64,000 nt of DNA. Source: Curvularia clavata (lineage: Eukaryota). Shown in pieces: positions 35,939 through 61,198 of the stretch. The stretch spans positions 2,542,001 to 2,606,000 of the forward strand of contig CP089276.1 of the NCBI GenBank assembly GCA_023920165.1, given 5' to 3'. The notes under the pieces were generated by a model. That model was given only the letters and a program-made list of their open reading frames with translations. It had not been told where the DNA came from and ran no database searches. The stretch's first letter is position 1; every line of letters begins with the position of its first letter. The position numbers and the translations under genes are program-made.

Positions 35939-36597
35939 TTACTCGCACGTGGAAAGCATTTTCTTGAGCACGCCCATGAGGGTGCCGTTTTCAAGGGCCG
36001 CGGCGACGCGCTCCTTGTCACCCAGCTGCTTGTTAACCTGGTCGTCGGTGCTATGGGTGCCTTTTTTGATACGAACGTCGACGCGGAAACGCGGGGGCAA
36101 GGCTTGCTCAAGGCGGACACGCACACCGAGGCCGATGACGGTGGCTAGGGAGCAGTGGGTGATTGTTGGGGTGATTTCAACGACAACGGTGCTGATGTTT
36201 GACAGCGGCGAGGCGGGGGGCAGGATGCGGATGTCAGGCAAATTGACGACTGAGAGGGAGCCAAGCGACAGTGGGTGTTCGGGGTCGCAGATGGTGGAAA
36301 TGAGGTCTGTCATGCGTGGGGTCAGCCAAAACGAAATGACGCAGTTGGACGAGCAAATGACTGACCGTAGATTTCCTGTTCGTCAATGGGGTCCTGTTCT
36401 GCATCGTCGCTGTCCGAGTCGGCAGGCGAAACAGGGTCGTCCAGGGGGTCGGTGAGATAGGTGTAGCGCGGGATGAGGTCGTCGAACAGGCCTGTGCCGC
36501 CATGGTGCTGGCTCTTTCCTGTTGCAGCACTGCGGCGGGAGGGCAGATCCGATGGGTTGAGGATGGTGGGGTTGGCATTGTCCTTGTCAAGCTCCAT
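35939..36597 (-). CDS. CIA2: Cytosolic Fe-S assembly protein, MIP18/FAM96B (DUF59)
   Basis: DNANPTIL, IDEQEIY|DLISTICDPEHPLSL, TPTITHCSLATVIGL, NKQLGDKERVAAALEN. Confidence 0.93.
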
Positions 36598-36651
36598 GGT
36601 GCCAAGCGGAGGTGGATATAGCGTACGTGCGTAGGCGTGGGCGTGTGCAGT

Positions 36652-36727
36652 GAGTGTGTGTGGTGTGTGTGGTGGTGGTGGTGGTGGTAATAGTGGTGGT
36701 AATAGTAGTGGTGGTGGTGGTGGCGGC
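36652..36727 (+). repeat. Compound (GT)n/(GGT)n microsatellite upstream of CIA2
   Basis: Read directly; it produces spurious poly-H/P/T/G ORFs. Confidence 0.85.
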
Positions 36728-39700
36728 GATGGCAATGGTTGCAGAGATGTGCTGCAAGAGACGGGTGCCTGGCCATCGACCCCTCATTTGCATGGAGCAG
36801 CGTCATCCACCATCCGTCATCCGATGAGTGTGGGCTGCTTAGCAATTGCTTTGCGATGCAATGCCCCAATCTCCCGCAGATTACCCGCCCGCCTGCGCCT
36901 GCGAGGGAGCGACATGCAGGGGAATTTTGTTATGTGTGGGGTGTGCCGTTTAGATAGCACCCTGGAGCGCCTGCCGCAGCGTTTGACTAGTGTTTGTAGT
37001 ATTGTTTTGCCCAAGGCACTACATGGCCGCAACAGGCATGTACATTTGAATCCATCCATCCATCCATTGGCGCTACAGATATGCGCGCCTACACATAGAC
37101 GAAATGCGTATACGAGTGGTTGTACTGTACGACGGCATTGTTTTGTCCGGATGCCGAGGACTCCTTCGGCCAACTTCGGCAAGGCTGAAGGACAGACGTC
37201 GTGGCCCCGCAGGCGGCAAGGCGACAAGGACGGGCGGCGGCGAGATGCTCGGTCGCCTTGTACCGGAGGAGCCCGCTCGCACTGCAAAGGCATGTCCATG
37301 GTGTTGTGTCGCCGTGAAGATTTTCGGGCCGTGGCTTCAACATGTCGCTGATGGTTGTGCGTTGGCGTCGACGTCAGGCAGAGCTGTCGGCTCCTCCCGC
37401 AACAGCGAGGCAGGCGGAGGCGGAAGGCTTCCCAAAGCGGGCAGGACAAATCACGTGCACGCTATCCTGTCCAAAGTACTACCTACTACTGGGTACTACA
37501 GATTGTGTCGGTGTGTTCCTGAGCTGCAGGGAGATCAACAGCAGCGATCAGTGTCAAAATCGTACCATCCGCCATGGCCCCACGTTACATGCTGTCACTG
37601 GCTGGTCTTCTGGATGCGACAATGTCGTGCCTGCTGTTCGAGACGGCTCCGCATCGCATAGCATGCCCATACTGTATCAACACGCCTGGGACAGCAGACA
37701 GAGTCGACAGGCCGCCGTCTGCCGCCACACAGCACCACCCGCCTGTCAGACGAGGCTCGGCTTGGCAACGCCCGTCTTGCTTCGCTGCCAAACCCTGGAA
37801 ACCTGTGAACAAGGGTCCCGCGATCCCCCAGCCCCTCCTGCTGTCTTGTCGCGTGCGGCGCAAAAGCACACGACCCGCCAGTCTGGTCAGCGCTCTTCTG
37901 CTGCCCCAGTCGATGCAGCCTCTTGGGCTCCAGCTTGCTTCCTTCCTTCCTTTCTTTCCTTCTTTGCTGCTGCTTCTTGTGGTCCTCCTCTGTCTGACCT
38001 CGCCACCACACCAGGCCAGGTCCAGCCGCGCGTCCCTCGCCCCTCGCCGGGCAGCACAAAACCCCCTTCTCCCAGGTGCCGCCATCGAAACCTTCTCGAA
38101 GCCTGCTCGCCCGCCCGTGTTTCGCTTCGCGGCCGCAATGTTCGTCGTCAGTTCATGCGATGCCATGCGGCAGGCCTGTCTGTCCATCTGTCCGTGCAGG
38201 CTACACTGTCCCAAACCACCTTAACCGCATCCGGAGTAGCCCTCTGGAGGATTATTGTTTTATGCGGGCTGTGCTGATGGTGATGCGTCTGCCGTTAGAA
38301 CCTTGCATGCAGCTGCGACTACCATGCGTCCGTCCAAATCAATTCGCCGACAAGTTGTGCGCGACATCGACACCGGCTCACCCGTCGTGGCCTGGCATGC
38401 TGGCCCATGGCCATGGCCAACTCGCAGCATGACAGCCTATCATCGACGCTCCCAACCGAGCCTCTCGCCATCTCGCCCCATGGCCTCATCGGGCTTAGCG
38501 CCATGTCACTCTCGTCCAGTCTGTGGAAAGACGGACGTTTCGCTTGGGCTCCTGACCACTGCTAACACCAACCTTGACTGATCGTGCCCCCTTTCTAGCC
38601 TGCTAGTAGGCCTACTACATGCGCATTTGCCATGAAGGTATATTATTTTGCCGGCTAAGCCAAGGTGCCTCGTCATCGATGCCAATCTCGCTCTCGTCGC
38701 TCTGTCCCGTGTACCAGCAGCCATGAGCGACCATGCTCCCAACTTTTCAGGCGCCTGGCCTGAGCGACATGTCCATCTACGATTCGATTACATGCATGCG
38801 CGCACCTTTCCCCAACCAACAGGTCGTATTATGCGCACCGATGGGCCTGCTGTCTATCCATCCAACTGACTGGTCGGCGCCCTAGAGTACTTTTTCTTCC
38901 TCTCCTACGCAACCCATCCAACCAATGCATGGCGCTACATGAAAACTTGTCTTTTTTCTGCTAATCAGCCTGCATGGTTCGCCGGAAAGAATTTGCCTTT
39001 TTGCCTGTGGGTTGCTGAGTGAGAGACAAGCGGCGCCGCCGTCCTCGTCCTGAGTCTGTGTATCTGTGTGTGCATGTGTGTCTCTTGTCAGTGTGTGGCT
39101 AGTTGGCCGTCCATGTACGACGGCCATGCTTCTCAGCTGTCAGACTTTCGCCCCCGCCGCCGCTTTTATAGCAGCGGTTCCCAGCAGACGGCGAGCTGCA
39201 AGGTCCACACTACCCGTTGTTCTACACACAATACGTACGTACGTAGGTGATACGATTCAGAGAACATCTAACGGGCGCCAGAACCCCTGCTCGCCCATTG
39301 CCTCACACCCCCACAGCACGGCAGTTCCCTGTGTCCGCAGCATCTGGCCTGCGGACGCTTGCACCTGGGCTCACGCGCCTGCAGCTTGGGCGCTCATACG
39401 AAGACGCTATTAGTGCGGTGCGGCTCCTGGATCCTGCACGTCGCATACCACCTACCCCTCGCCCGCCCGCCCGCCTGCTAACCCCTTCATACACGGCGAA
39501 CCACCTGCGGACCACCGTCCCAGTCCCAGTCCCAGCACTCAAGACTTTCAGGAGATCCATACACGGCCAACGCCACCACTGCGCGCGTGAGCCACGCCGC
39601 GAGCCCGCTGCCAGTGCGTCCTCGAAACCCCGGCATGCCAGACATCGTCTCCACCTGCCCTCCCTACCATACACCTATGCGCCTGCTGCCCTGATCTGCC

Positions 39701-40069
39701 GTATAACCTAACCACGCCCGCGGCACTGCGGAGATTTCGCGAGCGCTATACCATTGTTACATACTACTGCCACATACCTGCCTACCCACTGTACACTACC
39801 ACCTGTTGTCCTCGGTGCCCGGTCTCCTGTCCACTTCTGCCCCATTTCTGCACAAAACTATCCCCTCCCGCCATCACCCACCTGCCCCCCCCAGTACACC
39901 TACCAGTCCGTCCCAGTCTGGACCGTCGTCACGCGCCGCGTTCATTGGCCGCCCACCCACGACCGCACACAACCTCATCATCGACCTGGTGGATAACCGA
40001 CAACCCCGCGGCTCGCAACCACTTGCGCCAGTTTCCGCGCTTCCACGTCTGGGTTCCTCCAACAACACC

Positions 40070-43000
40070 ATGGCCCCGGAGACAACCGGACGCCCACTGC
40101 TACCCCAAACCGCCCAGATGCAGAGCTTCACTTTTGCGCCGCCAACACTGGCGCCGCGCGAGAATCAGCGCAGTGAGTCCCTCGCATCGCCTCTGCCGCC
40201 CCGGGCGGACGAGAGAGATTGGCGGACTGGCTGACATGAACCCATCTAGACTATGTATTCGTAGACGAGCACAATAGACACAAACGCCTAAAAGGTGCGT
40301 TCCCATTGCCCCTGGCAGGCACGCAGGCACGCTGCCGTGCTTGTGTCCGCCCGGGCGTGACATGCACATGCTAACGTGATGCAGTAATGAGAGCATGCGA
40401 AGGCTGCCGCAGACGCAAAATCAAATGCGATGCGGCTACGACAAATGCATGGCCCTGCGCTGCATGCATCCGCTTAAAACTGAACTGCGTACCACCTACA
40501 GTCAACTACGACAAGGACTATAACGGCTCGCAGACCTTTGATCTCGAACCCAAGTCCATGGAGTACCCTACCGATGCCCCTTCCCAAGAGGACTACCAAC
40601 GCCATGCGTCCATGGCCCAAGCCGTGCCTCATGGCATGCCACTGTCCATGCCCGGCTCCGCCCAAGCCATGTACCAGCCTTCGCCCTATGTCGACCAACA
40701 GTCACAAGAACAATGCCATTACCAGCCCTTGTCGCAGCCTCAGGTCGTCCAGCAAACAATGGGCTATGCTGCCCAACAGCCCTACCCACAAGCATCGCCC
40801 GCACCACCAACTATACTGACTCCACCCGAATCGGAGCCCCATTGGCGAAGTGATTCTGCTTCCAGCCTGTCCGAGGCTTTGGGTGAACTCAAGATAGATC
40901 ACACCGCTGTTGGTAAGATGTACCGAGCTCCTGATCAAACGCAAACGAGACTAACCACGTGTGCAGCGCCCTACATCACAAACATGAAGAAGACGCTGGC
41001 TGAGACACCAGCGCAAGAGGAGTACGAGGTACAGTTACCGCAATCAGTCAGCCTCGATCACACCGTCCGCATACCGCCAGAAATGATGCCTTCCGACGAG
41101 CAGGCTCTGCATTATTTCGACTACTTCTTTGCCAATGTTCACCCCTATTGCCCTGTCATCAACAAGGCCTATTTCTATCAGCAATGGCACAGCGCACCAG
41201 ATTCGATTTCGCCCCTCATGCTTGAGTCCATCTTTGCCTGCTCTACTCTGATGCTTGGAGACGTGGAAGAAGGTAACAAGTGGCTAGCCCTCGCAACAAG
41301 TGAGTAATCTCCTGCGCTATGGTTTGATTCGCCATGCTAACAACATCCCTCTTAGGACATGAAGAAAGCTTCAGGGACGTGTCACGACTGAGTACCATGC
41401 AGGCTATGATACTTCTTCTCAAGGCGCGTGAAGCCTCACCCAAGCGCGGATATTTCTGGCGTTCCTGGATGGCTACCGTCAGTTTGGTGGCAATGGGAAA
41501 AGACCTGGAGTTGCATGAACATTACGACACTCATCAGATGGGAAAGTCATGTGGATCGACACAGCACGATTGTGTCGTCAAGACAAGAGTGTGGCAGATG
41601 TGTCTGATTTTTGAAGTCATGATTGGTGGTCCTCAAGGTATGTTACTCGACAGATAGCTTGACTTGGAGTCCTAACCACATTGCGTAGGTCGCTATGATT
41701 TTGGTGTTGATATTGACACTGTCGATTTTGAAATGCCCAGGCCAATGGCTGGACAGGATCCCAGTGAGCTCCAGATCGCGCGCCAATTTGTTCAGTTTAC
41801 CCGCATCGCCAAAAACGTATATCACTCTGCTCTTATATACGGGAAGCTCAGGAAGAAGACGCCGGATTGGGCATTGGATCCTTCTTTCGTGGGCCACAAC
41901 ACCGACTTTTCCATTTGGCTACGAGAATTGCCCGAGGATATGCAGCTTGTCTACCCCCAGGATGGCTCTGCTCCCTGGATTCCATCTCATCAGATTGCGA
42001 ATATGCACAGCTACCACTGCCTAGCCATCATCATGCATTTCCGGCCTCAGTTGCATGCTGTATCCGATTCGTACGATGGCATATGGAAGCAGCATATGCT
42101 GACTTGTTACTCGGCTGCCAAGAATCTATGCAAGCTGCAGGAGGCCATTCTCAAAACTTATGGTATGCCAGGTCTATTGTGCATGATGAGAGGCATTAGC
42201 TTCCATATCTACGCTGTGCTCACTTGCACTATGCTTCATCTTGTAAGTATTGACAGTACCATTACTGTCGTTTATTCACTAACAGTCATAGGTCGCGGTG
42301 ACCTGCCCTGACCCGGACATCAACCATGACGCTAGAGACTTTTTCGTGAGACACGTGCGCGTTCTGGAGACCATATCCCCGTCGTTTCCTATGCCCGAGA
42401 TGCAACAGCAAGTCAACAGCCTGCGTCAAGCGTTTTCAGCCGATTGCTCCAAGCCATTTGAGCTAAAGCCATCGTTTCCCTTTGGGAGTCCTCAAGTGGC
42501 TGCACAAACGAGTCCCTTAAGCCACCAAGGCTCTTATCGACCTCGTCATTCGAGCCATTCATCGCCCATGGAACAACCAGGTCAGGTCAACTACCATGCA
42601 CATCCTATCACTCCACCAATCTCGGCATCCGACCACGGATCAAAGGCTGACTCTCCCGTAGCCCAGTCTTTGGTCATGATGGCATCTGGTCAGCGTGGAC
42701 CCCAGTCCGCATCTAACCTGCAGATGCCGGATAATGTACAATGGAATCCACAACGCATATTTGAGTGAGTTGCACCAAAGTTTGCAACAGGCTTGTGTCA
42801 TGCTAACTTGATACAGTCAATGGAATGTTGCCTTTGGTACGCCCCCTCCTACTAGCGCCTCCTCCCAGTCTTCCCCGCCGCTAAGACCCACCCCTTCAGG
42901 AACCAATTACGACATGCGGCAGGCGCAAGATTCCATGCAGCCCGGCTACCAAATGGCGAATACTTCGCCTCAGTCCAGTCACGTTCATGGCGCACCCGGT

Positions 43001-45943: not shown

Positions 45944-47800
45944 CTAATCTTGACGCATGCCGATGATGGGATACTCTCTCTCGTTCCCGTATCCTATGTG
46001 TGGCGTTGTACCTCTCTCTTTCGGTAGTACCGAATTTAGGAATGCGCCTACAATAGCAGCAATGACAAAGGGTGTTTCGACAGCGAGATTGATACCTTGT
46101 TCAAATCCGACCAGATTCTGATTTGGCCCCTCGTAAGCCAGGACTTGTGCAAACCAGTCTGGTTGACAAATGTCCATGAACCCAATACCAAGTGTAACGG
46201 CGAGAATAAAGCGGTCGCGGCGCGTCCATGGAATGAGGGCGAGAACTCGTACACCCGCTACGGCGATGGTACTGTAGAGAAACACTTGCATGCCGCCGAG
46301 TACAGAGGGAGGCATAGAAGCAAAGACAGCTCCAAACTTGGCAATGATTCCCATGATAATCAGGAAGCCACTTGCTGCCCACCCTGCTCGACGAGATGCA
46401 CAGCCTGTGAGAACTATGACACCGTTGTTACCAGCCTGGCTGACCATCGGTGGGCCAGTAGCCAGCGCACTGAAGAAGCTGCCGATTCCATCGCACAAAA
46501 TGCCACCCTGAACCCGACTGTTGAACACTGTCCCCTCAATGTCTACGTCAGACAACTCAGCGGTAGCCAGAATATCCGGGATACAAGAAACTGCTTGGCA
46601 AGCAAACATAATAATCATGGGCAACACCAGTGCGCCATCGACAGAGAGCTTGAACGTATGTACCCAGAGGAAAGTGCCTCTAGGTGCTTGGTCAAGTTGC
46701 TCAGTCGACCAGTATCCAGTTGCGCCCGAGATGGCACAACCAACGGCAAGACCAATGACAACAGACGCTGAGCGCATGAGTGGTGCGCCTACCGCTTCCA
46801 CAAGCACAATAGTCGCAAAAACACTGAATCCCAGTCCAATCAGCTTGGGGTGTCCCCAAACCAATGGCCTAGGAGCAGAAATATCCGGACACAGAGCATA
46901 GAAGCCCTCGCCGCCATGGCAATTCGACGATCCGCCCCAGTTCTGCAACCCATTGCCGACAAGATACACGCCCACGAGCGTCAAGAGCGACCCCGTGATG
47001 AGCTTGGGGAAGACCCTATTCAGGATCTTGGGCGGAACAAATGCCATTGCGATCTGGATCCAAACACAACATAGCATGGTACCGAGACAGGCGCCCCAGG
47101 CATCTGGACACGGCGCGCGGGTGCCGTCTTCAGACACAGAACAAGTTCCCGACTTGTACCGTAGAGCAGCGTAGTTGAAGACGATGGGGAGGATGTCGAA
47201 AGTCGGACCGACGACACTCAAGAGTCCCGTGCCGATGAAGAAGGGTGTTTTCATAATGTGGAGTCGCGTGACTTGCAGGGCGGTAGCTATTCCGGTGGTG
47301 ATGAAGGCCGTGGAGACAAGGTAAGTAGTCATTTCTGCGTCGAAGTTGAAGGCTCCTGAGGCAATGGCGAGGGGTGGCGAGACGATGGAGCCGATCATGG
47401 TGAGGGCGTGTTGCAGACCGAGCAGAAGCGTTAGGAGTATGGGGACGCGGTCGTTGAGACCGAAGAACGGGGCTTTGTAATCTTTATATTTGCGATTCAA
47501 GGGCCAGATATTGGGGGTGATGAGGTAGATATAGTCCTTGTATCACTGTTAGTCTCGTGGGTACTAGGGGAGTGCTTGTTTGAAGGACGCATTTACGTAG
47601 TCTCCAATCCACCCATCTCTCGTCGTGAATGCATGCTTGATCTCTGCAACTGTGTCTTGCCATTTCGTGGTTACGGTGCCTACTTCATGGCTAGTTGGTG
47701 GTGAGTAGGAGCCTGTTTCTTTGGCATAGTGTGACTTTGACTTGACCTCGACATGGGGTTCCATGGCCATGGCAGATGTCGAAGCTGAAGTGTGGATCAT
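45944..47800 (-). CDS. NAT/NCS2 (UapA-like) nucleobase permease with a variant signature
   Basis: GWIGDY|DYIYL, PFFGLND, LGLQHAL, IGTGLLSVVG, SRVQGGILCDG and signature QAGNNGVIVLTG. Start uncertain (47800, 47770 or 47764). Confidence 0.9.
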
Positions 47801-48796
47801 GACCCCAAACAGCAGCGCGCGACGTTGATAAATACCATCGCGCCATATGCTTGTGTGACCTTATCGGTGCAATCATTGACTCGCAGGAATACACTCTCTT
47901 GCCACATGGGACGGAACATGCAGGGACCCTAGTTGAAGTGACAGATGCTATGTTAGTCAGTTTTTTATACCGAAAGCGTACGTGTAATATTGTATCGTGC
48001 GAAATGTACTTCAATAGTCTATGAAAGCCTTTTTTCGCCAGATTCTCTCACTTTCTTCAGTTGAACTGTTTGGTAACGAAGTTTTGATCAAGCTTTATTA
48101 TCTTGTTCTCTTACCTACAGAATGCTTCTCTGACTGGTAGATGGAGTAAAAAACGATGTGGTTCGTCTGATACTACCAGGAAAACACTACTAGCAAAACA
48201 AACCTACTGTGATTGGTAGTACACATGCAGGTATCGTTTGGAAAAAGCTGCAAGTCAGCTTATTGTTTACATTGAATACCCCTGTCTATGTTACTGCGGG
48301 CGCTAGGAGCCTTTCGCTCGGTAGCATATCTTCTCCATGATAGGCGTTCGTGGGTTTATGGATATCACGGCCGCCAGTTCAGCGGAAGATTGCTATCAGC
48401 TGATAGCATAACAATCAAAGAAAATAAAAGCATTCTAGGTTCGCGGTGATGAGCAGTCTACTAGAGGCAAGAAGATAAGGCACTGCTATCAGATTAGCGT
48501 CGGCCGCCCCCTGTCACTTTAGCCGAGCGTGCGGAGGTGGATAACTGCAGTCATTACACATTGCTGTACGTGTGGCACAACCGACGAGGGGCAAGCGACT
48601 AGCCAGGTGTGGGGATATTGGCCGAGTGGAGCTACAGAGGATTCCTGGTATGCAATATTTTCTTGCTGAAGATTTCGCCAGCCTTCGAAGACCTCAAATA
48701 CATCCTTTGTCTTGAAAAAGGCTGTTTCTAGCATTAGGTTGCATTGCAGGGACTTCGCCGCCTCGACTTCTATCCTCACCTTTGGCCAAAGCAACA

Positions 48797-50319
48797 ATGG
48801 ATTTAGCAACGATGGATCTAGATCTAGCAAGCGATGCTACATTGACTCTGCTGGTCCATGCAACAATAATCACTGTCAACAAGAGCCGAGAAATCATCTT
48901 GGATGGCGCACTTCTCATTGAAAATGACCGCATCAAACTGCTTGGAAAGACTGCAGACCTCGGGATGCTACCCGCAGGCAATCGAGATCTGGAAATTATT
49001 GATTGTTCGAACAAAATTGTTATTCCGGGTCTCATCAACACCCATGCCCATCTGGCCCAGTCGCTACTGCGAGGACTCGCCGAGGATCTCCCTCTTCACA
49101 ACTGGTTATGCGACGCTATCTGGCCTTTGGAGGCAAACTATGCTGAAGATGATGGTTTTGTTGCGTCGATGTTGACAATAGCCGAGATGCTCAAAACGGG
49201 AACGACTTGTTTCCTTGAAGCAATGCTCACGCATCGAAGCGGGCTTGAGAATGCAGTCCGAGCCGTAGAACAGAGTGGAATAAGAGCTTGCTTGGTGAGT
49301 TTGATAACGCCTGGAATTCGGATAGCCGCTAATGTAGACCGCAGGGTAAATTGATCAAGGCTGCTGAATCAAACCCAGACCTCAACATGAAGGATGCAAG
49401 AGATCGTGACGTCGACTCTATGTCTGTAGATGTTGCCCTTGCAGCACACAAGAAGTACCATAATACCTGCGAAAACCGTCTACACATATGGTTTGCCGCT
49501 GGAACACCTCGTGGATCTCCAATGGCCGCTCATGCCTCAATAGGCGAGACGGCGCAAAAAAACAACATTGGTCTTACCATGCATTGTGCGGAAGCGCCGA
49601 AGGATCTTTCCATCTATCGGCAATACTACCAGTGCAGCCCTTTTGAATTTTGTCGAGACGCTTCGCTGACAGGCTCCAAAAGTGTATTTGCACATTGTGT
49701 ACACCCGGATCCAGCAGCTGGGGACTTTGACATTCTCCGCGAAAGCAAGAGTACCGTTTCGCACAATCCGACAAGTAACCTTAAGCTTGGCTCGGGAGTG
49801 GCACCAATCCCGGATATGGTGGCAAATGGTGTGAATGTGACACTGGGGACAGACGGCGCGCCTTGCAACAACACATACGACATGTTCCGTGAGATGCATC
49901 TAGCATCGATACTCCATGGTGGAGTGAGGCAGAATGCCGGTGTGCTGAGTGCATATGATGTTCTAGAGTTTGCTACAATAAATGGAGCAAAAGCGCTTGG
50001 GTTGGAGGATGATATCGGCAGTTTGGAAGTGGGAAAGAAAGCGGACATTGTCATTGTGGAACCAAAAAGCCTTTCTAGCGCTCCTTGGTCTGCAACTCAG
50101 CAACATACCGGCGGCATCGATCCGGTCACAGTACTAGTCCATTCTTCGGGAGCGGATGTCGATATTGTAATGGTCGACGGCGATGTTCTTGTCCGTAACG
50201 GCAAGTTGGTGCGTTTTGACGAGGACATAATCAGACTGGGAGCGAGGCGTTCGATAATCGGCATACGACAAAGGAGCGGCATAGGCGCGAGAAACCACAT
50301 GTCATTAAAGTATACATAG
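48797..50319 (+). CDS. Amidohydrolase, AtzA/TrzA/MTA-SAH/guanine deaminase-like
   Basis: PGLINTHAH, MLKTGTT, MHCAE, FAHCVH, HNPTSNLKLGSG, LGTDG, GSLEVGKKAD. Intron ~49294-49345. Confidence 0.92.
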
Positions 50320-50321
50320 AC

Positions 50322-52591
50322 TCAGAACCGAAATGAAAGCAGATCATCAAAAAGACCGGGCCCTCCGAAAGCTATCTGTGATGGCAGCATGTTCGCCAAA
50401 GAGTCCCATGAAGCATCAGCCACGCTGTCGAGAGTCTGTACTGTTGGTGAAGGGGTAGGCACAGTCACTTGAAGGTTTTGCGATACGCCATCGATGAAGC
50501 TTTCGACATCCAGCGTCCGGGCCCGCTTCCTCGATGGAAAATCCTGATCGCTGGATTCGGTTCTTCGTGGTCGCTTTCTAGTGTCAATTCTTACACCTTC
50601 TCGGATCTCTTTCTGTAGCGCCGACAGTAGTTGAATACCACGCGAAGCAATCTTGCTATCTTTGAATCTTTGCAGGTAATCGATTGTATCTGCAACAAGC
50701 TTTGTATGTTCTCTAACCTCTTTCTCTTCCCCCGTACGATGTAGGGCGTCGAGACTGAGAATGATACCAGCTGCAATCGAGAAAGCCTGTTCAATCCACA
50801 GTATTGGTCCTTGTTCATCATTCGCAGATAGTGCTTCCTTCAAGATCGTTTTTGATGCTGCTATACAAGTGCGACGTGTGAATGTGAATGCTGAATTGGT
50901 GAAAGAAAGTCCCAAGAATTTTCGATGTATCATGATGATCTTATGCGAAGCGCAAATGGCTAATGATCTTCTGGCCCATGCTACATATTTTGGCCACTCG
51001 TTGCATACAGGCGCGTTTGTTGACAAGAAAGTAGGCATACAAGCTGTAGCCAGCTTGCGCATCTTCTCATCATAGTGTAATACCTTCTCATACTTTGTGA
51101 AGAGGGTATTACAGTCCGCCATATCATCCAGCAGCTGTGGCATAAGTGCTGCGATATCATAGCGATAATTGCAATAGCTCGCTTGGGTGGGTGTAGACAA
51201 AGGTTGGGGTATCATGTCGTTGTCATTACAATTCAGTAGTTTCGCGTGTTGATAGAAGCGAGGATTGAGCGAGTAAGATTCTGAAAAGGGAATCTGAAAC
51301 CAGTCTTGCGTACAGAGTTGGTTGAAAACTCTTCGTCCCATTTCTCGTTGGCGCAGCTGATCTCTTGAGAAAGTAGCATTCTCGTCCTCAACACGTAGAC
51401 GATGCAGACCCAAGCTCTGTGCAATGCGTCCAGCCGATGCGAGTAAAACTGATTGGCTGTTCGATTTTCCGAGAGTGTGAGCAGCAATTGTCAGCGTTGC
51501 GATTGCTTGCACGGAGTAAACAGTGTGATCTTCGATGTAACCAGCAATGTTGAGACATGTGACACTGGCTTCATACCATCTTTGTGATAATACTGTTCTT
51601 TCGGCTGGGGAAAACCCCCAAGATTGGTGTACCGATGGCGGTGCACATGTCATGCTTCCTGTGATAATAGCAAACAAAAGGCTCAACCATTGAAGGTTCA
51701 GACTTTCGTTACGTACGTTGCCGTCGTATTCTGTAAAAAACTGGTTCATATCTTGGTTGAATATCGTTGACGAGTAGGACCCATGATACCAGAGAAGGGA
51801 GCTGTTGTGATATTCAACAAGTTGTAAAAGATGATCCTTATTCGGAAGGAGAGCTTCCAGAACATCAATCTGTGCATCTCTGCTGCTTTCACTCATGGAG
51901 TAGGATGTTGTAGCTGGGTCATCATGCCTTATGCTGAATCGCCTCGGTCCACTATTATGCTCTGGTGATGACCCGTATTCAGCGTCCTTCTTTCGACCCC
52001 ATGCCAGGAATTCCAGAACAGTAGCTGTATCTGCAGCCTCAGGAGATGAGAGCACCTCATTGTCTTTTGCAGAAGAATCTACCGCCTCATAGTGTGTGGG
52101 ACTTGCTGGAGTGTCTTCAGGATGCAGTAAAGGCGCTTCGCCTGAAGGCGGATCGTGCCGTTCATTCAATTTAGACTCGAGCTCTTCCACACGTTCTAAA
52201 ATTGCTCGTACAAAGTCTTCGGATACGGTGGTTCCCCTTTGAGTTCCATGAGCAGCATGTGATACAGATTGTGAAGTCGAGGCGTCCTCTCTCGAACAAA
52301 AGCTCGCATAACCCCTAATTAATTACTTAGTATAGAGTATGGCAGAACACGTCCTACCAATTCACTTAAAGTTTAAGGTTAGCTGTTCGGACACAGCAAG
52401 CTTTGTGGATGTCTTTAACAAGCCGACTCTGCGGCGAGGCCGCATGTCCCAGGTGATAATAAAAAGAGAAGTGCTGACCTTCTGATACAGGTACTGCAGG
52501 GAACCTTCTTATCGCACTTGATCTTTCTCTTGTAACATTCTGTACAGGTCAAACGCGGCCGTTGTCCTTTGAAAAAGTTTCCGTCGTCCAT
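50322..52591 (-). CDS. Zn2Cys6 transcription factor with fungal TF domain
   Basis: Exon 1 RLTCTECYKRKIKCDKKVPCSTCIR, intron ~52478-52315, then LEFLAWGR, RIAQSLGLHRL and REMGRRVF. Confidence 0.88.
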
Positions 52592-52983
52592 TGATGTCGA
52601 TAGCTATGCTCGAAGGCAGTTCGGAATCTCGCAGACTTGATCGCTAGCCTCACGTAAGCTGCAACCGGCTCTCAATGAAGCTGCATGTCGGGATGATAGA
52701 CGGATGACAGGGGGCGGCCGAGATGTCGGGGGAGCCTTATCTACGGCCAATCTAAGCTGACATGCCCCGCCGCGAGCATTCAACCCACTGCCACTCTCTA
52801 ACGGCGGTAACGGCCGAGCCTAGCGGCGGCATCAACATCAGAGGGTTTTCTTTGACGCAGATCAAAACCGAGCTGGTACATGTCCAGATGAAGGTGATTA
52901 AACATAAGAGTGGTTGCATTCTGCTCGAGGTTTGACAAGACAACGCTTCGACATCGAACAAGTCAAATCTTACACACTTCATC

Positions 52984-54133
52984 ATGGCACCCACAAGATA
53001 CACCGACCGCCATGTGCCAACCATCTCACTTCGCAACTTCGACCTGCGGGTGGACGAGATCACTCGTGAGCTAGTTGATGCTGCAGAAAACCATGGCTTC
53101 TTTTGCATTGTGGATCACGAAATCAGCCGCAGTACTATTGATAGCATCTTCGAGCAGTCGTCTCGCTTTTTTGGTCAGCCTAATGATGTGAAGTCAAGAG
53201 TACCCTTCTCTCCTCAACACAACGCCGGGTGGGAGAAGAATGCGCAAATAAGGCCATCTACAGGAGCAGTTGATCGCAAAGAATCGTATCAAATGCAATT
53301 TGGAGAAGGCATGAATGGTGAGTTGCTCTTACTAGGCCGGTTTATGGCAGCACTGATTGATTAAAGGGCGCTGGCTGGATGATGAGACATTGCCAGGTTT
53401 TCAGGCCGAAGCCCTAGACTTCATGCACAAAGTACAATCAGTTAGCGAAAAACTCATGATATGTTTTGCGAGGGGTCTGGGCTTCGAAGATGACTATTTT
53501 GTCAAAGCCCATGATGTCCGCCGGCCAGAGTCCCAAACAGTCTGTCGTCTCCTGCATTATTTCGAAACACCCAAAGTGCAGAGTCAAAATGGAGAGGTGT
53601 ATCACAGGGCGGGTGCGCACACTGATTGGGACTTTTTGACTTTACTGTTCCAAAAGGCTGGACAGTCGGGTCTGGAGATCTGCCCGGGGAGAGAAGCTTC
53701 GACGGCTTTTGGTTCTGGCGACTTGTGGACAAAGGTCGAACCTGATGCTGAGAAGAATGCTATTGGTAGGTCGTCTTTTGCTTAGATATAGACTTCTGAC
53801 TCATACTACACAGTCTGCAATGTCGGCGACTTGCTCATGTCATGGTCTGACGACCGCTTCAAATCAACCTTGCATCGTGTCAAGGCACCGTGCGAGCCAG
53901 ACGATAACTACGGCGAGCGATACAGCATCGCTTTCTTCAACCAGCCATGCAAGGACGCGAAGATCCAAGGGCCTATGAAAAAGTACCCAATGGTAACGGG
54001 TGAGGAATTTACTAGGAATGCTATGAACCGGAACTACCAAGCAGTACAAGAGAAGCTGAGGAAGGAAAGGGAGTCGGCAGGTAAGGCGAGAGAGGTAGAC
54101 ACGGTAGTGACTTCAGTTAGCGTTGCTGTTTGA
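52984..54133 (+). CDS. 2-oxoglutarate/Fe(II) dioxygenase (IPNS / thymine-7-hydroxylase-like fold)
   Basis: AAENHGFF, RLLHY, GAHTDWD (HxD), CNVGDLL, STLHRV, RYSIAFF; two introns. Confidence 0.92.
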
Positions 54134-54448
54134 GTCGAGTTTCTGTAATATCGCGATTTTACTCAATGTGCTTATCATGGATATATGAAATGTATTTGTT
54201 CTGGTTTTCACGTGCTCACGCGTTTGTCTTGGCGCGACATACCTAAATCAGTGCACTTGCCACTTCGCTCAGCCACTTGGGCAAACTCAGTACATGAACA
54301 GCGTCGCGACCACACTCGGCCATGCTGAGGAGCCAGTCCCATGTTTAGAAATCCTCGAGAGAACCGCACATTGCCTGAGACGTCAAGGCTAGCCCCGTCG
54401 ACCGGTCGTCCCCCTTCGCCACCCCGCTCTTCATCAAGCGACGCAACC

Positions 54449-56995
54449 ATGGCCACCAAAACCGCAACGAAGAAAGCAGCGTCGAAGCCGAGTACGAGCA
54501 CTTCTCCGCCAAATCGCAAAACTGTTCAGACTACACTCACACCGGCCGATTTTGCGAAGAAGCCGTCTTCTGCGAATAATGGCAAGAAGCAGAAACCAGC
54601 CGGGACGCCGAATGGCAACATCATGGCATTCTTTAAAAAAGCTGAGGAGATCAACAGTCGCATATTCCTACAAGAAAGAGGTGCGAACCCAGCAATTGCG
54701 CTCGAAAATTACGAGGAAGATGTCGGCTGGAGTGATGAGAAGAGCAACGGCGTCGTAATCTCAGACAACGGCGAAGATCGCTACAACGAGAATTGCAGCA
54801 GTAACAAACGTCGGAAAGTCAGCGAAGAGCCAGCAGTACCGCCTCCGGCATGTTCACCACCTCCGCCAGCTGATGCTGAGAGCAAAGCTCTAGACACACT
54901 CACAGCACATATGTCTAAACAAGTGCAGAAGCCACGCAAGAAATCAGGACCCTTTGTAGATGATTCGGAATCCGAAGACGAAGGAGGAGAGATACCTGCT
55001 ACAAGTTCAGGTATGGCTATGCGAAAACAGAGTGAGATGTCGCCAATTACTAAAGAATCCGAGGATCCACCAATGATGGAAGCATCTAATCCAGAATCGA
55101 TACTAAGAGAAGAAGAGGAAAATTACGAAGATTACGAAGGGCTCGAGGATGACGATCTACTTGAAGGGGAAGAGTATGACGAAAGGCGTTGGATGAAAGA
55201 ACAACATAAACTAGAGATGGAAGAGGCGGGATTTGAGGGCGACCCAGACGAATTTGAGGCCCCTTTCTTATTTCCAGAGCAGGAAACATCAGAATTTCGA
55301 CAAGGAATGCAACAAAGCGATACCTCCAACATACCCTCATGCCCAATATGCGGTAGTAGTCTACCAGGTCTGCCAGAACAAGACGTATCTGTGCACGTCA
55401 ATGCATGCCTGGATGGCAAGCCACTTCCGCTTCCCGTACCAAAGACAGAACACCAAATCGAACGGGATGCTGGGGGTACTGCTAAGGCATCCATGCAGAG
55501 GGAAAGACCAGCCAAACCCGGCCAAGCAAACCCATTCCAGTTTGCAAAGCCGAGTACGCAGTCCGCCTCGGCGTTTTCAAAGCTCATGGCTGGGCATGCT
55601 GAGGACGCCGCATGGGCGACTGCGGCTGCCGAGAATAACAAGGCCCGAGGCAAGCCCGCCTATCAGCGGACTTGTCCATTCTACAAGATTATGCCAGGTT
55701 TTTTTATTGCTGTCGATGCTTTCCGCTATGGGGCTGTTAAAGGCCAGAACGCTTACTTCCTTAGTCACTTTCACAGCGATCATTATGTTGGGCTTACTGC
55801 ATCTTGGAAGCATGGTCCAATATATTGCAGCAAAGTCACAGGGAATCTGGTACGGCAACAACTTCGAGTCGATCCGAAATGGGTTGTAGATCTTGATTTT
55901 GAGGTCAAAACAGAAGTGCCGGGAACTGGAGGCGTGTTCGTGACGATGATATCAGCGAATCATTGTCCTGGTAGCTCCCTCTTCCTGTTTGAGAAAGAAA
56001 CTGGCAAAGGTGCAAACCCAAGGATGCAACGGGTCTTACACTGTGGAGACTTCCGCGCATGCCGAGCACACATCGAGCACCCCCTTCTCCGCCCCGATGT
56101 ACTGGACGCTGTAAGTGGGAAGACCAGGCAGCAGAAACTTGACGCTTGCTACCTTGATACTACCTACCTCAACCCAAAATATGCTTTCCCACCACAACAT
56201 CAGGTCATCCAGGCTTGCGCAGACATGTGCGTCAGTCTCAGCAAGGCTCGTGCTGATGAGTCAGATGGGTGGGAGAAAATGAAGCGGAAGCGCGCGGGGC
56301 AAGGCATGGTCAACTTTGTGCAAAAGGACTCTAATGCGGACGACCCATTACAGCCAAAGAGCCCTGAGCGAGGTCGCCTCCTTGTTGTTGTAGGCACATA
56401 CAGCATTGGAAAAGAACGCATATGCACCGGTATCGCAAAAGCCCTGAAAAGCAAAATATATGCTCCCACCAACAAACAGCGCATATGCAAGGCGCTCGAA
56501 GACCCCGAGCTGGATGCGCTGCTGACGACCGATCCTCGTGCTGCTCAGGTACATATGACCCCACTTTTTGAAATTCGGGCAGAGACGTTAGACGACTATT
56601 TGCGTGGTTACGCTGATACGTTTTCACGCGTCGTTGGTTTCAGACCCTCTGGCTGGAACTATCGTCCACCTCGAGGGCGCTTTACCGAATCGCCTCAGGT
56701 GCAGACTGTTCTATATTCGGATAACTGGAAGAGTACATTTTCCATGGAAGACCTCAAACCGCAAGCAGGCAGTGGGAGCAGGGCTAGTTGCTTTGGTGTA
56801 CCATATAGCGAGCATAGCAGCTTCAGGGAGCTAACAATGTTCTGTTGCGCGCTAAGGATCGACAAGATAATACCTACCGTCAATGTAGGTAGCGCGAGCA
56901 GCAGGGAGAAGATGAAAGTTTGGTGTGATAGGTGGGCTGCCGAGAAGAAGAAGAATGGCTTATTCAAATTAGGCAAGGGTGACGAAGGATGGTAG
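54449..56995 (+). CDS. PSO2: DNA interstrand cross-link repair nuclease Pso2/Snm1 (UBZ + MBL + beta-CASP)
   Basis: CPIC..HVNACLD, VDAFRY, FLSHFHSDHY, ANHCPG, HCGDFR, LDTTY, YSIGKE, PYSEHSS. The start may be ATG 54341. Confidence 0.94.
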   Translation: MATKTATKKAASKPSTSTSPPNRKTVQTTLTPADFAKKPSSANNGKKQKPAGTPNGNIMAFFKKAEEINSRIFLQERGANPAIALENYEEDVGWSDEKSNGVVISDNGEDRYNENCSSNKRRKVSEEPAVPPPACSPPPPADAESKALDTLTAHMSKQVQKPRKKSGPFVDDSESEDEGGEIPATSSGMAMRKQSEMSPITKESEDPPMMEASNPESILREEEENYEDYEGLEDDDLLEGEEYDERRWMKEQHKLEMEEAGFEGDPDEFEAPFLFPEQETSEFRQGMQQSDTSNIPSCPICGSSLPGLPEQDVSVHVNACLDGKPLPLPVPKTEHQIERDAGGTAKASMQRERPAKPGQANPFQFAKPSTQSASAFSKLMAGHAEDAAWATAAAENNKARGKPAYQRTCPFYKIMPGFFIAVDAFRYGAVKGQNAYFLSHFHSDHYVGLTASWKHGPIYCSKVTGNLVRQQLRVDPKWVVDLDFEVKTEVPGTGGVFVTMISANHCPGSSLFLFEKETGKGANPRMQRVLHCGDFRACRAHIEHPLLRPDVLDAVSGKTRQQKLDACYLDTTYLNPKYAFPPQHQVIQACADMCVSLSKARADESDGWEKMKRKRAGQGMVNFVQKDSNADDPLQPKSPERGRLLVVVGTYSIGKERICTGIAKALKSKIYAPTNKQRICKALEDPELDALLTTDPRAAQVHMTPLFEIRAETLDDYLRGYADTFSRVVGFRPSGWNYRPPRGRFTESPQVQTVLYSDNWKSTFSMEDLKPQAGSGSRASCFGVPYSEHSSFRELTMFCCALRIDKIIPTVNVGSASSREKMKVWCDRWAAEKKKNGLFKLGKGDEGW

Positions 56996-58209: not shown

Positions 58210-59494
58210 AGTCGAGATGTGCTGATGCGGATCCGAGAGAAAGGAAGAAGCAGATGTGTCGGGTTACTCAACAACCGGATACGATACGGAACTTCCGATC
58301 ACGACAATCACAACCCCAAGAAAGAGGACTGGAATCTCTTTTTTATGATGCCATCGCAAAGACTCTAACCGACTTCACGGATATGGTCCAACCTGGCCTA
58401 TCCCAACGGCAGACTCAGTTCTTGTACAGTCTATTACCATCGACTCTTAAGAAGACTTTAGACTGGGACTCGAACATTGCATGCACCTACACATGCGATA
58501 AATCATGTCAGCTTACGCGTTCTACAACCGGGAACTTCGAATAGCGCCCATGGGAATTATACTCATACATCGCCGACAGAAAGACCTTACTCAAGCGCAA
58601 TAGACCCAATACGAAGGAGATTATTACTCCGACCGCTTCACACGCCGCCGAACCTGACCACACGTTATGTTGCTGCGTATAAATTGGGACGGGTGTTCTC
58701 GAGGTACTAGGACGAATACTTGATAAATAATGGACAGCTTGCAGCAAGCTGGTAGTAAGCTTGCAAAGGAGTTTGGGAGAGAATACGGAAAGAAGCTGAG
58801 AGCTATTTATCAGCAGTGGGTAGACGAGTATGGGCTCGCGCCAAAGTGTTAATTTTGTAATTTTAATTCATATTCGCTCAATGATTTTTTCACGCATCAT
58901 GGCGATAGGGTTAAGTAAGCGTCTACGTCGACCTTGATTTGTCAATACCTGTGTTCTTTGCTTCCGCAACAGGAAAGGCACGCAACACATGGTGGTCACT
59001 AGTTTCGCCAAAATGAGATGCAAAGCTTCGTTATCGTCAGCCTTACCGCTGAACAATGGGCAACTGGTTACCACCAGAACTCCTTCTCCTTTTGCTCTCA
59101 CTCGGTATTTGAATTTTAACTAATATTGGTCTATCTGAATATCAACGCCTTTCTTGTGCTTCACAAACACATAGATTGTCTCTACAACGTGCGGGTCCCC
59201 CTGTCGCACTAGACCGAGACCTCGCTATATTCACATAAGCGTGATGCAATGTGCTGCAGCTTGAACAAGGACATTGGTTGGTCGCAACATGAAGGCAACA
59301 GCTGCGTCGTGCACTGCCCCATCGACCAAAAACCGAGCCTCATGGTTTCTATCGTCGACTCACCAATAAAAGGCTGCTTCTCTGACTCCTCAGGGCTCGA
59401 TACTGTTCCTAGCTTACTCGTTTTTTACCAATTCTGCATATGCTAGGTGTACCCACAACCTGACCAAGCATAAACCAAGCAACCTTATCTCATC

Positions 59495-61198
59495 ATGAGG
59501 CTTCTGAACACAAAATCTCTTGAGCTTAGCCGTCCCTATGTACCGAACGAGGTTCCAGACTATGCAATTCTTTCGCATCGGTGGAATACTGAAGAGGTCA
59601 CATTTGCAGATCTAAGCAACACACGCATTGTCCAACCTGAAAGCCAAGCTCGTACGAAGAATGGGTTTGCAAAGATACAGGGAGCTTGCAAACGGGCACT
59701 CAATGATGGATACGATTGGATCTGGATTGACAGTTGTTGCATCGACAAGTCCAGTTCGGCTGAATTACAAGAAGCCATCAATTCTATGTGGCGATACTAC
59801 GCGGAGTCAAATGTTTGCTATGTTTATCTAGCAGATGTTCCCGACTCAGAAGCTGGCTGGGGTTCAATATTTGCCAAAAGCGAATGGTTCACGCGTGGTT
59901 GGACGTTGCAAGAGTTAATCGCCCCAACATATGTCGAGTTCTTTGCGGAGAATTGGGTCGCAATCGGTACGAAGTTCGAACGATATCAACAGATTGCAGA
60001 AATTACCTCGATCGACTCAGATGTTCTCATCCGTGTTCACACTATTGAAAAATTCAGTGCTGCAGAAAGACTTTCATGGGCATCTCATCGAAACGTCACC
60101 AGGGAAGAGGACGAGGCATACTCGCTCCTAGGTCTATTTGACGTCAATATGCCACTTCTATATGGAGAGGGGCGGGAGAAAGCCTTTTTCAGGCTCCAAG
60201 AAGCTATCTACAATGCTACAGCTGACCACTCAATGTTTCTATTTCGCCATAGCCAACACAAACTTGCCCAACCTCTATTGGCTAGTTCGCCAGCAAGCTT
60301 CTGCGACAGATTGGGTTGCGATTCCTGTGCCTCGCGGGGAAGTCAGAATACATCCTCAAGTTTTCGATATCGCGATATCATTGCATCCGATCGGTGGATT
60401 ACACAAGCCCATGAACAAATCATGACTACTGTTACCACGACCCGCAATGAGGTCACCACTGTGCTTCCGCTGTTGGACTATCAACTTGTTTTCAACAAGC
60501 TAGAATTTTTCGACAGAGAGGCGCCGCGACCCATTACAACACATGTAGCAGTACTCAATCATACCCTGGAAAAGTACCCCCAAGGCGCTTTCTGTCTATT
60601 GTTAGAACGACACCCTTACCTGGATATATGCATCCGCAAAAACGACCTCCCGGCCGTTTTGCCCCATCTTGGGGACAGCGTGTCTCAAATTGAAAAGACG
60701 AAACTCCTCATATGTCCAATACTGAGTACAAAAAATCACGAAAACTGCATCCAAACCCTGTTTTCTGTTGACAGCGACTTGTTTCATGTAGAGGCATGGG
60801 ACGCTGAGGGTAGCAAAAATCGGTTATTCATATCAGGACAGCCAGAACAAAAATCAGACTTCAAAATTCTAGCAAGAAATTCTGATACAGCCGAAAACTC
60901 AGTCAAAGTATCTTGTCAAATCTGTGGTTCACAGAATCCAAACTTGTTGCTCACTATCCGAATAGTTCAAATGCATGGAATTTGGTCCATCAAGGAGATT
61001 TTTGAACGAAAAAGTGGGGGTAGGGAACGAAAACTACGCACGTTGTTTCTTTCCTCTACTCCTACCGATCGTTGTGCAATTGAGTTTCCGAGTGGAAAGA
61101 TGCTGTCAGTGAAGCTTCGACGCTTACCTAGCTCTGCTCGTACTCCTCAAGGCTTTTTCGTAAAAAACCGTTATCGAATCTCAGTAGACAGTCGATAG
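59495..61198 (+). CDS. HET-domain (heterokaryon incompatibility) protein
   Basis: MRLLNT, YAILSHRW, WIWIDSCCIDKSSSAELQEAINSM, WFTRGWTLQELIAP, AYSLLGLFDVNMPLLYGEG. Confidence 0.92.
   Translation: MRLLNTKSLELSRPYVPNEVPDYAILSHRWNTEEVTFADLSNTRIVQPESQARTKNGFAKIQGACKRALNDGYDWIWIDSCCIDKSSSAELQEAINSMWRYYAESNVCYVYLADVPDSEAGWGSIFAKSEWFTRGWTLQELIAPTYVEFFAENWVAIGTKFERYQQIAEITSIDSDVLIRVHTIEKFSAAERLSWASHRNVTREEDEAYSLLGLFDVNMPLLYGEGREKAFFRLQEAIYNATADHSMFLFRHSQHKLAQPLLASSPASFCDRLGCDSCASRGSQNTSSSFRYRDIIASDRWITQAHEQIMTTVTTTRNEVTTVLPLLDYQLVFNKLEFFDREAPRPITTHVAVLNHTLEKYPQGAFCLLLERHPYLDICIRKNDLPAVLPHLGDSVSQIEKTKLLICPILSTKNHENCIQTLFSVDSDLFHVEAWDAEGSKNRLFISGQPEQKSDFKILARNSDTAENSVKVSCQICGSQNPNLLLTIRIVQMHGIWSIKEIFERKSGGRERKLRTLFLSSTPTDRCAIEFPSGKMLSVKLRRLPSSARTPQGFFVKNRYRISVDSR

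Follow-up and report, generated by a model that had tools for sequence, protein, structure and literature searches.

A UapD-like permease gene of Curvularia clavata with an exchanged set of substrate-binding residues and its divergent amidohydrolase neighbour

In a 64,000-nucleotide stretch of the Curvularia clavata genome (GenBank assembly GCA_023920165.1, contig CP089276.1, forward-strand positions 2,542,001 to 2,606,000; called the window here and numbered from its first letter), a gene on the minus strand specifies a protein of the NAT family (nucleobase-ascorbate transporters) in which the side chains known to hold xanthine in the Aspergillus nidulans permease UapA are replaced. It is arranged divergently with a gene for a cog0402-type amidohydrolase. 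The balance tilts, if not by much, towards an intact and functional UapD-like symporter of the elevator type, which would carry a nitrogen heterocycle other than xanthine that is handled by the amidohydrolase. Added here are evidence for constraint, the fixed set of exchanged residues, and the conserved amidohydrolase partner.

Gene model, family assignment and predicted fold

The NAT gene (47770..45944, minus strand) consists of two exons for a protein of 588 amino acids, as deduced from the translated reading frames and the splice sites. Exon 1 (47597..47770) contains 58 codons, starting with the ATG at 47770..47768, and specifies a cytosolic N-terminal tail ending in RDGWIGDY. The predicted intron of 60 nt (47537..47596; GTAAAT...CTAAC...AAG) restores the frame upon splicing. 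Exon 2 (45944..47536) comprises 530 codons (47536..45947), which include all predicted transmembrane segments (TMS), and a TAG stop codon at 45946..45944. The resulting junction, GDY/DYIYLITPNIWPLN, agrees with the consensus of 112 aligned homologues, and the predicted size is that of the two best named matches (P0002, P0003). The analyses described below were performed with the frame of exon 2 (45947-47542, minus strand; P0001, 532 amino acids), which is without the N-terminal tail and starts with two residues derived from the intron.

Profile searches assigned the protein to the Pfam family Xan_ur_permease (PF00860) with 164.2 bits at a cutoff of 27. TIGR00801 (NCS2) was matched above its cutoff (307.2 versus 291.8 bits) and TIGR03173 (xanthine permease, pbuX) below it (207.8 versus 414.15 bits). 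An AlphaFold2 model obtained from an alignment of 112 sequences showed a mean predicted local distance difference test value (pLDDT) of 88.4 and a predicted template modelling score (pTM) of 0.88, and the ten-residue blocks spanning TMS8 and TMS10 reached pLDDT values of 87-95. Short strands are found in the model at residues 111-113 and 366-368, the sites of the strands in TMS3 and TMS10 of NAT proteins. In a Foldseek comparison with the PDB, UapA ranked first (5i6c_A; TMq 0.80, TMt 0.88, 46% identity), followed by SVCT1 and UraA. The NAT fold with its 7+7 inverted repeat and with half-helices and strands in TMS3 and TMS10 is predicted to be intact. An intact fold had already been claimed when the DNA was interpreted from its letters only (the sequence-only reading), and the mean pLDDT of 88.4 and the TMt of 0.88 to UapA bear this out as a prediction.

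Substrate-binding residues compared to UapA

UapA was also matched when P0001 was compared by phmmer with all PDB chains (E about 1e-148 across residues 3-509). Residue numbers are the native ones of 5i6c_A; the u40100 chain has an offset of 8. In this alignment, FACQAVSCIPD of TMS8 (46574..46606) is matched to fiicacecigd of UapA, and the TMS10 signature SQAGNNGVIVLTG (46403..46441) to tfaqnngvialtr. The serine codon at the position of E356 is located at 46588..46586, the glutamine codon at position 406 at 46438..46436, and the glycine codon at position 408 at 46432..46430. In TMS3, the strand and half-helix read P-T-F (47198..47206), corresponding to V153-S154-F155 of UapA, and in TMS1 the Gln-His motif (Q85-H86 in UapA) is kept within GLQHAL (47408..47413). 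Altogether, the window protein differs from UapA by E356S, Q408G, F406Q, R417G, G359P, V153P, S154T, C353Q, G527P and V463I, and shares with it Q85, H86, F155, D360, D388, A407, N409, N410, G411, T416, R481, T526 and F528.

According to the available text of two studies on UapA (PMC4837479, PMC3405029), E356 and Q408 are direct ligands of xanthine and cannot be replaced. Phe155 and Phe406 pack on the xanthine ring, and the main-chain atoms of Ala407, Val153 and Phe155 provide further contacts (PMC4837479). Q85, E356, D388 and N409 are termed irreplaceable, and even E356D and Q408E lead to loss of most transport (PMC3405029, in the parts available). The same source ties the transport cycle and domain packing to the interactions Q85-T416 and H86-N409, to D360 with N410 and T405, and to a gate formed by R481, T526 and F528. 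With E356, Q408 and F406 replaced, the window protein has neither side-chain ligand and, of the stacking rings, only Phe155 left, while the structural polar network is retained.

The sequence-only reading had pointed to 46405-46600, and the codons of both the TMS8 and the TMS10 motif fall within this interval or at its edge. Its four exchanges (E356S, Q408G, F406Q and R417G), the residues that it regarded as kept (Q85-H86, D360, D388, N409, G411 and T416) and the UapA motif strings that it gave all agree with the alignment, in which the Glu and the Gln are not retained; G359P was not on its list. For the larger pocket that it proposed, the smaller size of the replacing side chains is the sole ground from which we infer it, and the new substrate that it proposed would likewise be a candidate reading.

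Fixed substitutions in the clade

A word-indexed search scored 8000 proteins, of which 812 had E <= 0.001. The best 120 of these show 71-91% identity with at least 87% of the query covered, and they belong to four classes of the Pezizomycotina, the Dothideomycetes, Leotiomycetes, Sordariomycetes and Eurotiomycetes. The nearest relatives among the matches listed are from Bipolaris, Stemphylium and Alternaria (90-91% identity). Three Aspergillus species, A. tubingensis (P0119), A. heteromorphus (P0114) and A. ellipticus (P0121), are represented as well. Applying regular expressions to 121 proteins, the signature was detected in all of them, with Gly at position 408 in 119 and Ala in two. The TMS8 motif with Ser was detected in 115; the six missed by the pattern also have Ser at this position according to the alignment. 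In an exhaustive HMMER search of representatives at 50% identity, 56 proteins had at least 430 residues, and among these only P0122, which is 54% identical, combines S356 with Ala or Gly at 408.

For comparison, a search seeded with the canonical representative P0129 provided 120 NATs from fungi and red algae, two of which were dropped for length (P0274, 468 amino acids; P0300, 939 amino acids). The joint MAFFT alignment contained 122 clade and 118 canonical rows. The clade is uniform at several positions: 356 is Ser in all 122 rows and Glu in all 118 canonical rows, 359 is Pro versus Gly (122 and 118), 406 is Gln in 122 versus Phe (96) or Tyr (22), and 527 is Pro in 122 versus Gly (117) or Pro (1). 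Position 408 is Gly (119) or Ala (3) in the clade and Gln in all 118 canonical rows. Position 463 is Ile (121) or Val (1) versus Val (118), and 417 is Gly (113), Ser (8) or Cys (1) versus Arg (110), Lys (7) or Asn (1). In TMS3, Pro, Thr and Phe are each present in 122 of 122 clade rows, compared to mostly Thr, Ser and Phe in the canonical rows, with Thr (100), Pro (13), Val (3) or Ile (2) at position 153. Position 353 is Glu (69) or Gln (53) in the clade and Leu, Ala, Cys, Ser and others in canonical NATs. The Gln and His of TMS1 are found in 118 of 122 clade rows, the other four being gapped, and in 117 and 118 of 118 canonical rows, respectively. By the thresholds used, the two groups are told apart at only 33 of the 532 columns. 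As the motifs are read off an open frame, chance plays no part in them, and conservation serves as the control: Ser at 356 and Gly or Ala at 408 occur in 122 of 122 clade rows and Glu and Gln in 118 of 118 canonical ones. The window protein thus does not stand alone with its substitutions, and the replacement of substrate-contacting side chains noted in the sequence-only reading is systematic throughout the clade.

Positions 353 and 414 (residues 316 and 377 of P0001; codons 46597..46595 and 46414..46412) appear to covary. Ser414 co-occurs with Glu353 in 48 of 49 rows, and Gln353 is mostly found with Val414 (47 of 53 Gln rows), which may reflect a contact between TMS8 and TMS10 or mere shared descent.

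Three observations concern individual proteins. In P0165, an unrelated representative at 50% identity, the Glu of TMS8 is kept and Gly occupies the position of Q408 (TYSGNTG); the signature Gln was therefore lost more than once in the family. The clade member P0091 is labelled Persea americana (avocado), probably due to fungal contamination of a plant assembly, and P0088 of Penicillium atrosanguineum is named 'carbonic anhydrase', which is probably a misnaming.

Relation to the published UapD-like group

Canonical NATs are defined by three motifs in the available text of Kourkoulou et al. 2018 (PMC5972032). The window protein contains the Gln-His motif of TMS1 and departs from the other two. 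In TMS8 it reads S-C-I-P-D, with Ser in place of Glu and Pro in place of Gly, and in TMS10 it reads G-N-N-G-VIVL-T-G, in which the first position is Gly and the remainder conforms. The same source, as far as available, mentions a divergent, non-canonical fungal group 'called UapD-like proteins' without the nucleobase/ascorbate motifs. UapD was found in Aspergillus section Nigri, and section 31 of the respective paper states that no data support a function of UapD in nucleobase transport (PMC5307856). A title cited in PMC5972032, by Krypotou, Scazzocchio and Diallinas (2015), refers to 'an intrinsically misfolded polypeptide'.

In the part of the PMC5972032 supplement that was available, signatures are printed for one tree group: SQAGNNGVIVLTG, the same string as in the window protein, is given for Bipolaris maydis CocheC5_1100377, and GQAGNNGVIVLTG for Botryosphaeria dothidea; Aspergillus niger A2QBM4 and Talaromyces marneffei have the nearly identical SQAGNNGVISLTG. 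The window protein fits a Pleosporales member of the UapD-like clade, an identity of clade and UapD that would rest on description, taxon and motif. The assignment to UapD made in the sequence-only reading is thereby supported by the literature description, the members from section Nigri and the printed signatures. Its novelty was overstated, since the clade and the exact signature are already in print in the available portion of PMC5972032; that interpretation is largely right, and it is not new. Names such as 'purine permease' and 'uric acid-xanthine permease' attached to clade proteins probably indicate the wrong substrate.

Phylogeny and constraint

A FastTree phylogeny was calculated from 101 rows, consisting of 35 clade members, 40 canonical NATs, 18 other representatives and eight bacterial-type proteins as outgroup; clade members and canonical NATs were drawn at random, with P0001 and P0122 added. 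The clade forms one side of a branch with a support of 100 and a stem of 0.47, and it is placed beside all sampled canonical fungal NATs, not inside those of the Pezizomycotina. Two long-branch representatives with Glu and Gln (P0128, P0132) attach to its base. The depth of the split is uncertain because FastTree joins long branches readily.

Both types of permease are present in one species in Exophiala spinifera (P0094, P0387), Exophiala xenobiotica (P0097, P0385) and Aureobasidium melanogenum (P0115, P0388/P0312), where clade protein and canonical paralogue show 46.5-48.5% identity. When Exophiala is compared with Aureobasidium, identity is 74.1-77.9% for clade proteins and 70.3-73.8% for the canonical paralogues. 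The order is reversed in the pair of Exophiala species (79.8% for the clade, 87.5% for the canonical type). Judged by these cross-class pairs, constraint on the clade is no weaker than on the canonical permease. The most common residue has a mean frequency of 0.82 in the clade, compared to 0.67 for canonical NATs, two figures obtained with different taxon sampling. Taken from the alignments, this pattern of constraint points to a working protein under selection rather than to decay.

A number of placements cross class borders. The NATs of Stachybotrys and Thyridium (Sordariomycetes; P0020, P0022, P0031) nest within the Pleosporales set with a support of 99, and Stachybotrys amidohydrolases (P0413, P0429) are 74-75% identical to the one in the window, as are those of Pleosporales. 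The NAT of Geosmithia is found among Eurotiomycetes and those of Diaporthe and Cytospora with Botryosphaeriales. These placements suggest that the gene or the pair was transferred between classes, or else that paralogy is hidden here.

The amidohydrolase neighbour

The start codons of the NAT gene and of the amidohydrolase gene are separated by 1026 bp (47771..48796), presumably a shared promoter region. The amidohydrolase gene (48797..50319, plus strand) is predicted to specify about 490 amino acids in two exons (48797..49294 and 49345..50319, including the stop codon), separated in the gene model by an intron of 50 nt (49295..49344; GTGAGT...CAG). The model shows 75% and 82% identity to J4E78_004648 of Alternaria triticimaculans, carries the Pfam domain Amidohydro_1 and contains the HxH, HxxE, His and GTDG motifs. 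Among proteins of solved structure, it is closest to atrazine chlorohydrolase, MTA/SAH deaminases, 8-oxoguanine deaminase and guanine deaminases. All NCBIfam equivalog models searched scored below their cutoffs, the best being 5'-deoxyadenosine deaminase with 218 + 117 bits at a cutoff of 522, and an Atlas search returned generic names only.

Linkage of the two genes in other fungi was assessed by matching exact contig sizes in bp and locus tags between the 120 NAT matches and the 120 amidohydrolase matches listed. At least 21 of the best 120 NAT matches share the exact contig size with an amidohydrolase match listed. Eight of these shared contigs are no larger than 41 kb (4465, 6120, 9081, 18866, 21484, 30488, 36454 and 40590 bp), and the smallest harbors a NAT fragment of 534 amino acids and an amidohydrolase of 485 amino acids, with a gap of hardly more than 1 kb. 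The two genes have consecutive locus tags in Alternaria triticimaculans (J4E78_004649/004648) and Didymella sp. IMI 355093 (N0V86_001787/001786). When species named in both lists of 120 matches were considered, the two contig sizes agreed in 13 of 16; among the non-matching cases, Exserohilum turcicum and Stachybotrys chartarum are each represented by two records from different strains. The NAT gene and the cog0402 amidohydrolase gene form a conserved divergent gene pair. No printed link between a NAT permease and an amidohydrolase in fungi was found in the literature that could be searched.

Other genes of the window

Convergent with the amidohydrolase gene is a gene for a Zn2Cys6 transcription factor (50322..52591, minus strand), a candidate regulator of the pathway, with the Zn_clus domain in an exon at 52415..52603 and a weak match to Fungal_trans (E 0.046). 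The stop codons of the two genes (50317..50319, plus strand, and 50322..50324, minus strand) are only 2 bp apart, and the 3' ends must therefore overlap. A gene for a protein similar to 2-oxoglutarate/Fe(II) oxygenases (52936..53785, plus strand), possibly another member of the locus, matches DIOX_N with E 1e-16 and 2OG-FeII_Oxy with E 0.0049, the latter below the cutoff.

Further genes recognized by domain matches specify a PHO4 phosphate transporter (13266-14738, plus strand), a membrane protein with a Fung_rhodopsin domain (22288-23109, minus strand), a DNA repair nuclease of the SNM1/PSO2 type (DRMBL; 54329-56995, plus strand) and a HET-domain protein (59474-61198, plus strand). A pogo/Tc5-type transposase is seemingly intact, with an uninterrupted frame of 570 amino acids (25852-27564, minus strand) and the domains DDE_1, DDE_3 and HTH_Tnp_Tc5. 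The region 36000-40300, directly upstream of another Zn2Cys6 gene (40375-42768), has a GC content of 0.58-0.61, compared to about 0.50 in the flanks, and contains long stop-free frames on both strands with His/Tyr-rich and Pro-rich translations.

Possible function of the permease and its partner

Because the transport machinery is kept and the substrate-contacting side chains are replaced, the window protein is read as a symporter with a re-specified pocket. It would be an elevator-type permease of 14 segments, probably coupled to protons. The conserved machinery would comprise Gln-His of TMS1, D360, D388, N409-N410-G411, T416 and the gate R481/T526/F528, whereas the side chains holding xanthine appear to be exchanged as a set: E356S, Q408G, F406Q, G359P, V153P, S154T and Glu or Gln at 353. 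As judged from these residues, the machinery would work and the pocket would serve another purpose. Given the exchanged ligand set, xanthine or uric acid is most likely not carried, and the cargo is more likely another nitrogen heterocycle. The hydrogen-bonding site may have been shifted rather than abolished, with Q406, at the junction of strand and helix, two positions before 408, and Glu or Gln353 one helical turn before 356. Since enzymes of the partner's group act on purines, pterins, triazines and adenine nucleosides by deamination or dechlorination, an aminated N-heterocycle is the most economical guess for the cargo. In such a two-gene module, the permease would import or otherwise handle a compound which the amidohydrolase would deaminate or hydrolyse, and the Zn2Cys6 factor next to them may control the pair. 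The analysis shows the substitutions and how conserved they are, the predicted fold and the gene linkage; that the protein transports at all, what it would carry, its coupling to protons and the control of the pair are matters that we infer.

A wider proposal is a conserved uptake-deamination module of two genes, possibly mobile by horizontal transfer, for an aminated heterocycle outside the range of the known fungal nucleobase transporters. Examples would be adenine or guanine in an oxidised or modified form, a pterin or a compound resembling triazines. The proposal is put forward tentatively, and we would lean slightly against it. If true, it would provide a function for the orphan UapD group and overturn the view of an inactive, misfolding protein. 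The group has been without a function since 2015, and the amidohydrolase partner turns the question of its substrate into a short list that can be tested. UapA is the reference for substrate choice in elevator-type nucleobase transporters, and the clade represents a natural experiment in re-specification of the pocket: it has changed every side-chain ligand, yet is as conserved as a working xanthine permease.

A number of points weigh against a functional symporter for the substrate of the amidohydrolase. In the sole experimental study of UapD known to us, by Krypotou et al. in 2015, AbUapD of Aspergillus brasiliensis expressed in A. nidulans reportedly showed no transport, was retained in the endoplasmic reticulum (ER) and was degraded. 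At position 353, no more than 69 of the 122 clade rows have Glu and the other 53, including the window protein, have Gln, so that no relocated carboxylate is conserved. Adjacency does not name the cargo, and the permease may carry the product of the paired enzyme. Linkage was seen mainly in Pleosporales and on short contigs. In Paraphoma chrysanthemicola, the NAT and amidohydrolase contigs differ in size, the tags of Didymella heteroderae differ by 89 on a single contig of 365 kb, and in Halenospora and Cadophora (Leotiomycetes) and in Stachybotrys elegans there is just co-residence on contigs of 1-3 Mb. The remaining 99 of the 120 NAT matches are uninformative, as the amidohydrolase matches listed end at 59% identity, and the comparison covers no Eurotiomycetes, the class in which UapD was named.

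Two other explanations assume an active protein. Xanthine, uric acid or another ordinary nucleobase could still be carried by means of the displaced ligands Q406 and Glu/Gln353. These are invariant at 406 (122 of 122) and always Glu or Gln at 353 (69 + 53), where canonical NATs have apolar or small residues; in addition, F155, A407 and the region of backbone contacts are retained, and deaminases of guanine and 8-oxoguanine, which yield xanthine-type bases, are found in the class of the neighbouring enzyme. This explanation has nevertheless a small chance of being correct, as the stacking aromatic F406 is gone, the xanthine permease model scores 207.8 at a cutoff of 414.15, a canonical paralogue of the xanthine-uric acid type is present in the same species, and AbUapD is said not to transport. 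Moreover, even E356D and Q408E already cost UapA most of its transport (PMC3405029, available text).

Alternatively, the protein could be a transporter or sensor at an internal membrane or an exporter, for example one removing the product of the amidohydrolase or acting across the ER or vacuolar membrane. Gene pairing is consistent with export of a product as well as with import of a substrate, and AbUapD is reportedly located in the ER and vacuole of A. nidulans. The characterised fungal NATs named in the available text of PMC5972032 are, on the other hand, all H+ symporters of the plasma membrane, and we regard such a role as unlikely to a similar degree.

The notion of an inactive, intrinsically misfolding NAT relic, retained in the ER, degraded and without a role in transport, is suggested by the title from 2015 in the reference list of PMC5972032, by the statement on missing data for nucleobase transport by UapD in the section of PMC5307856 mentioned above, by the loss of both residues that UapA cannot do without, E356 and Q408, and by the prolines at G359 and G527. 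It is improbable, and the weakest of the explanations, in view of an open frame with a conserved splice junction, 71-91% identity across four classes among the best 120 matches, conservation no lower than that of the functional canonical paralogue in identical cross-class species pairs, replacement residues invariant in 122 of 122 rows, which is a signature of selection and not of decay, a confident AlphaFold2 model and a conserved partner gene; being held back in the ER of a foreign host need not mean misfolding in the native one.

Comparison with known systems

An analogous branch of NATs without the functional motifs is known from animals, SVCT3/SLC23A3, which transports neither nucleobases nor ascorbate according to the available text of PMC5972032. 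It belongs to another kingdom and another branch, and the likeness to the window protein is one of description. With the UapD-like proteins, including AbUapD, the window protein shares the divergence, the missing motifs and a clade with members from section Nigri, as compared by description, taxon and motif; it differs from AbUapD in coming from the Pleosporales, with Bipolaris, Stemphylium and Alternaria as the closest genera among the matches listed (90-91%). UapA and UapC, symporters of uric acid-xanthine and H+, belong to the same family and have in common with it the predicted fold (46% identity to UapA), the Gln-His motif and D360, D388, N409-N410-G411, T416, R481, T526 and F528. In contrast to them, the window protein lacks both side-chain ligands of xanthine, has Gln for F406, Pro for G359 and G527 and Gly for R417, and belongs to a separate clade. 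In Escherichia coli, xanQ and guaD place a purine permease beside a deaminase whose product, not its substrate, is carried by the permease. The arrangement in the window is likewise one of an NCS2-type permease gene beside a gene for a cog0402 amidohydrolase, but XanQ has the canonical Glu and Gln and carries xanthine, whereas the ligands of the window permease are replaced and its amidohydrolase partner reaches no NCBIfam equivalog cutoff.

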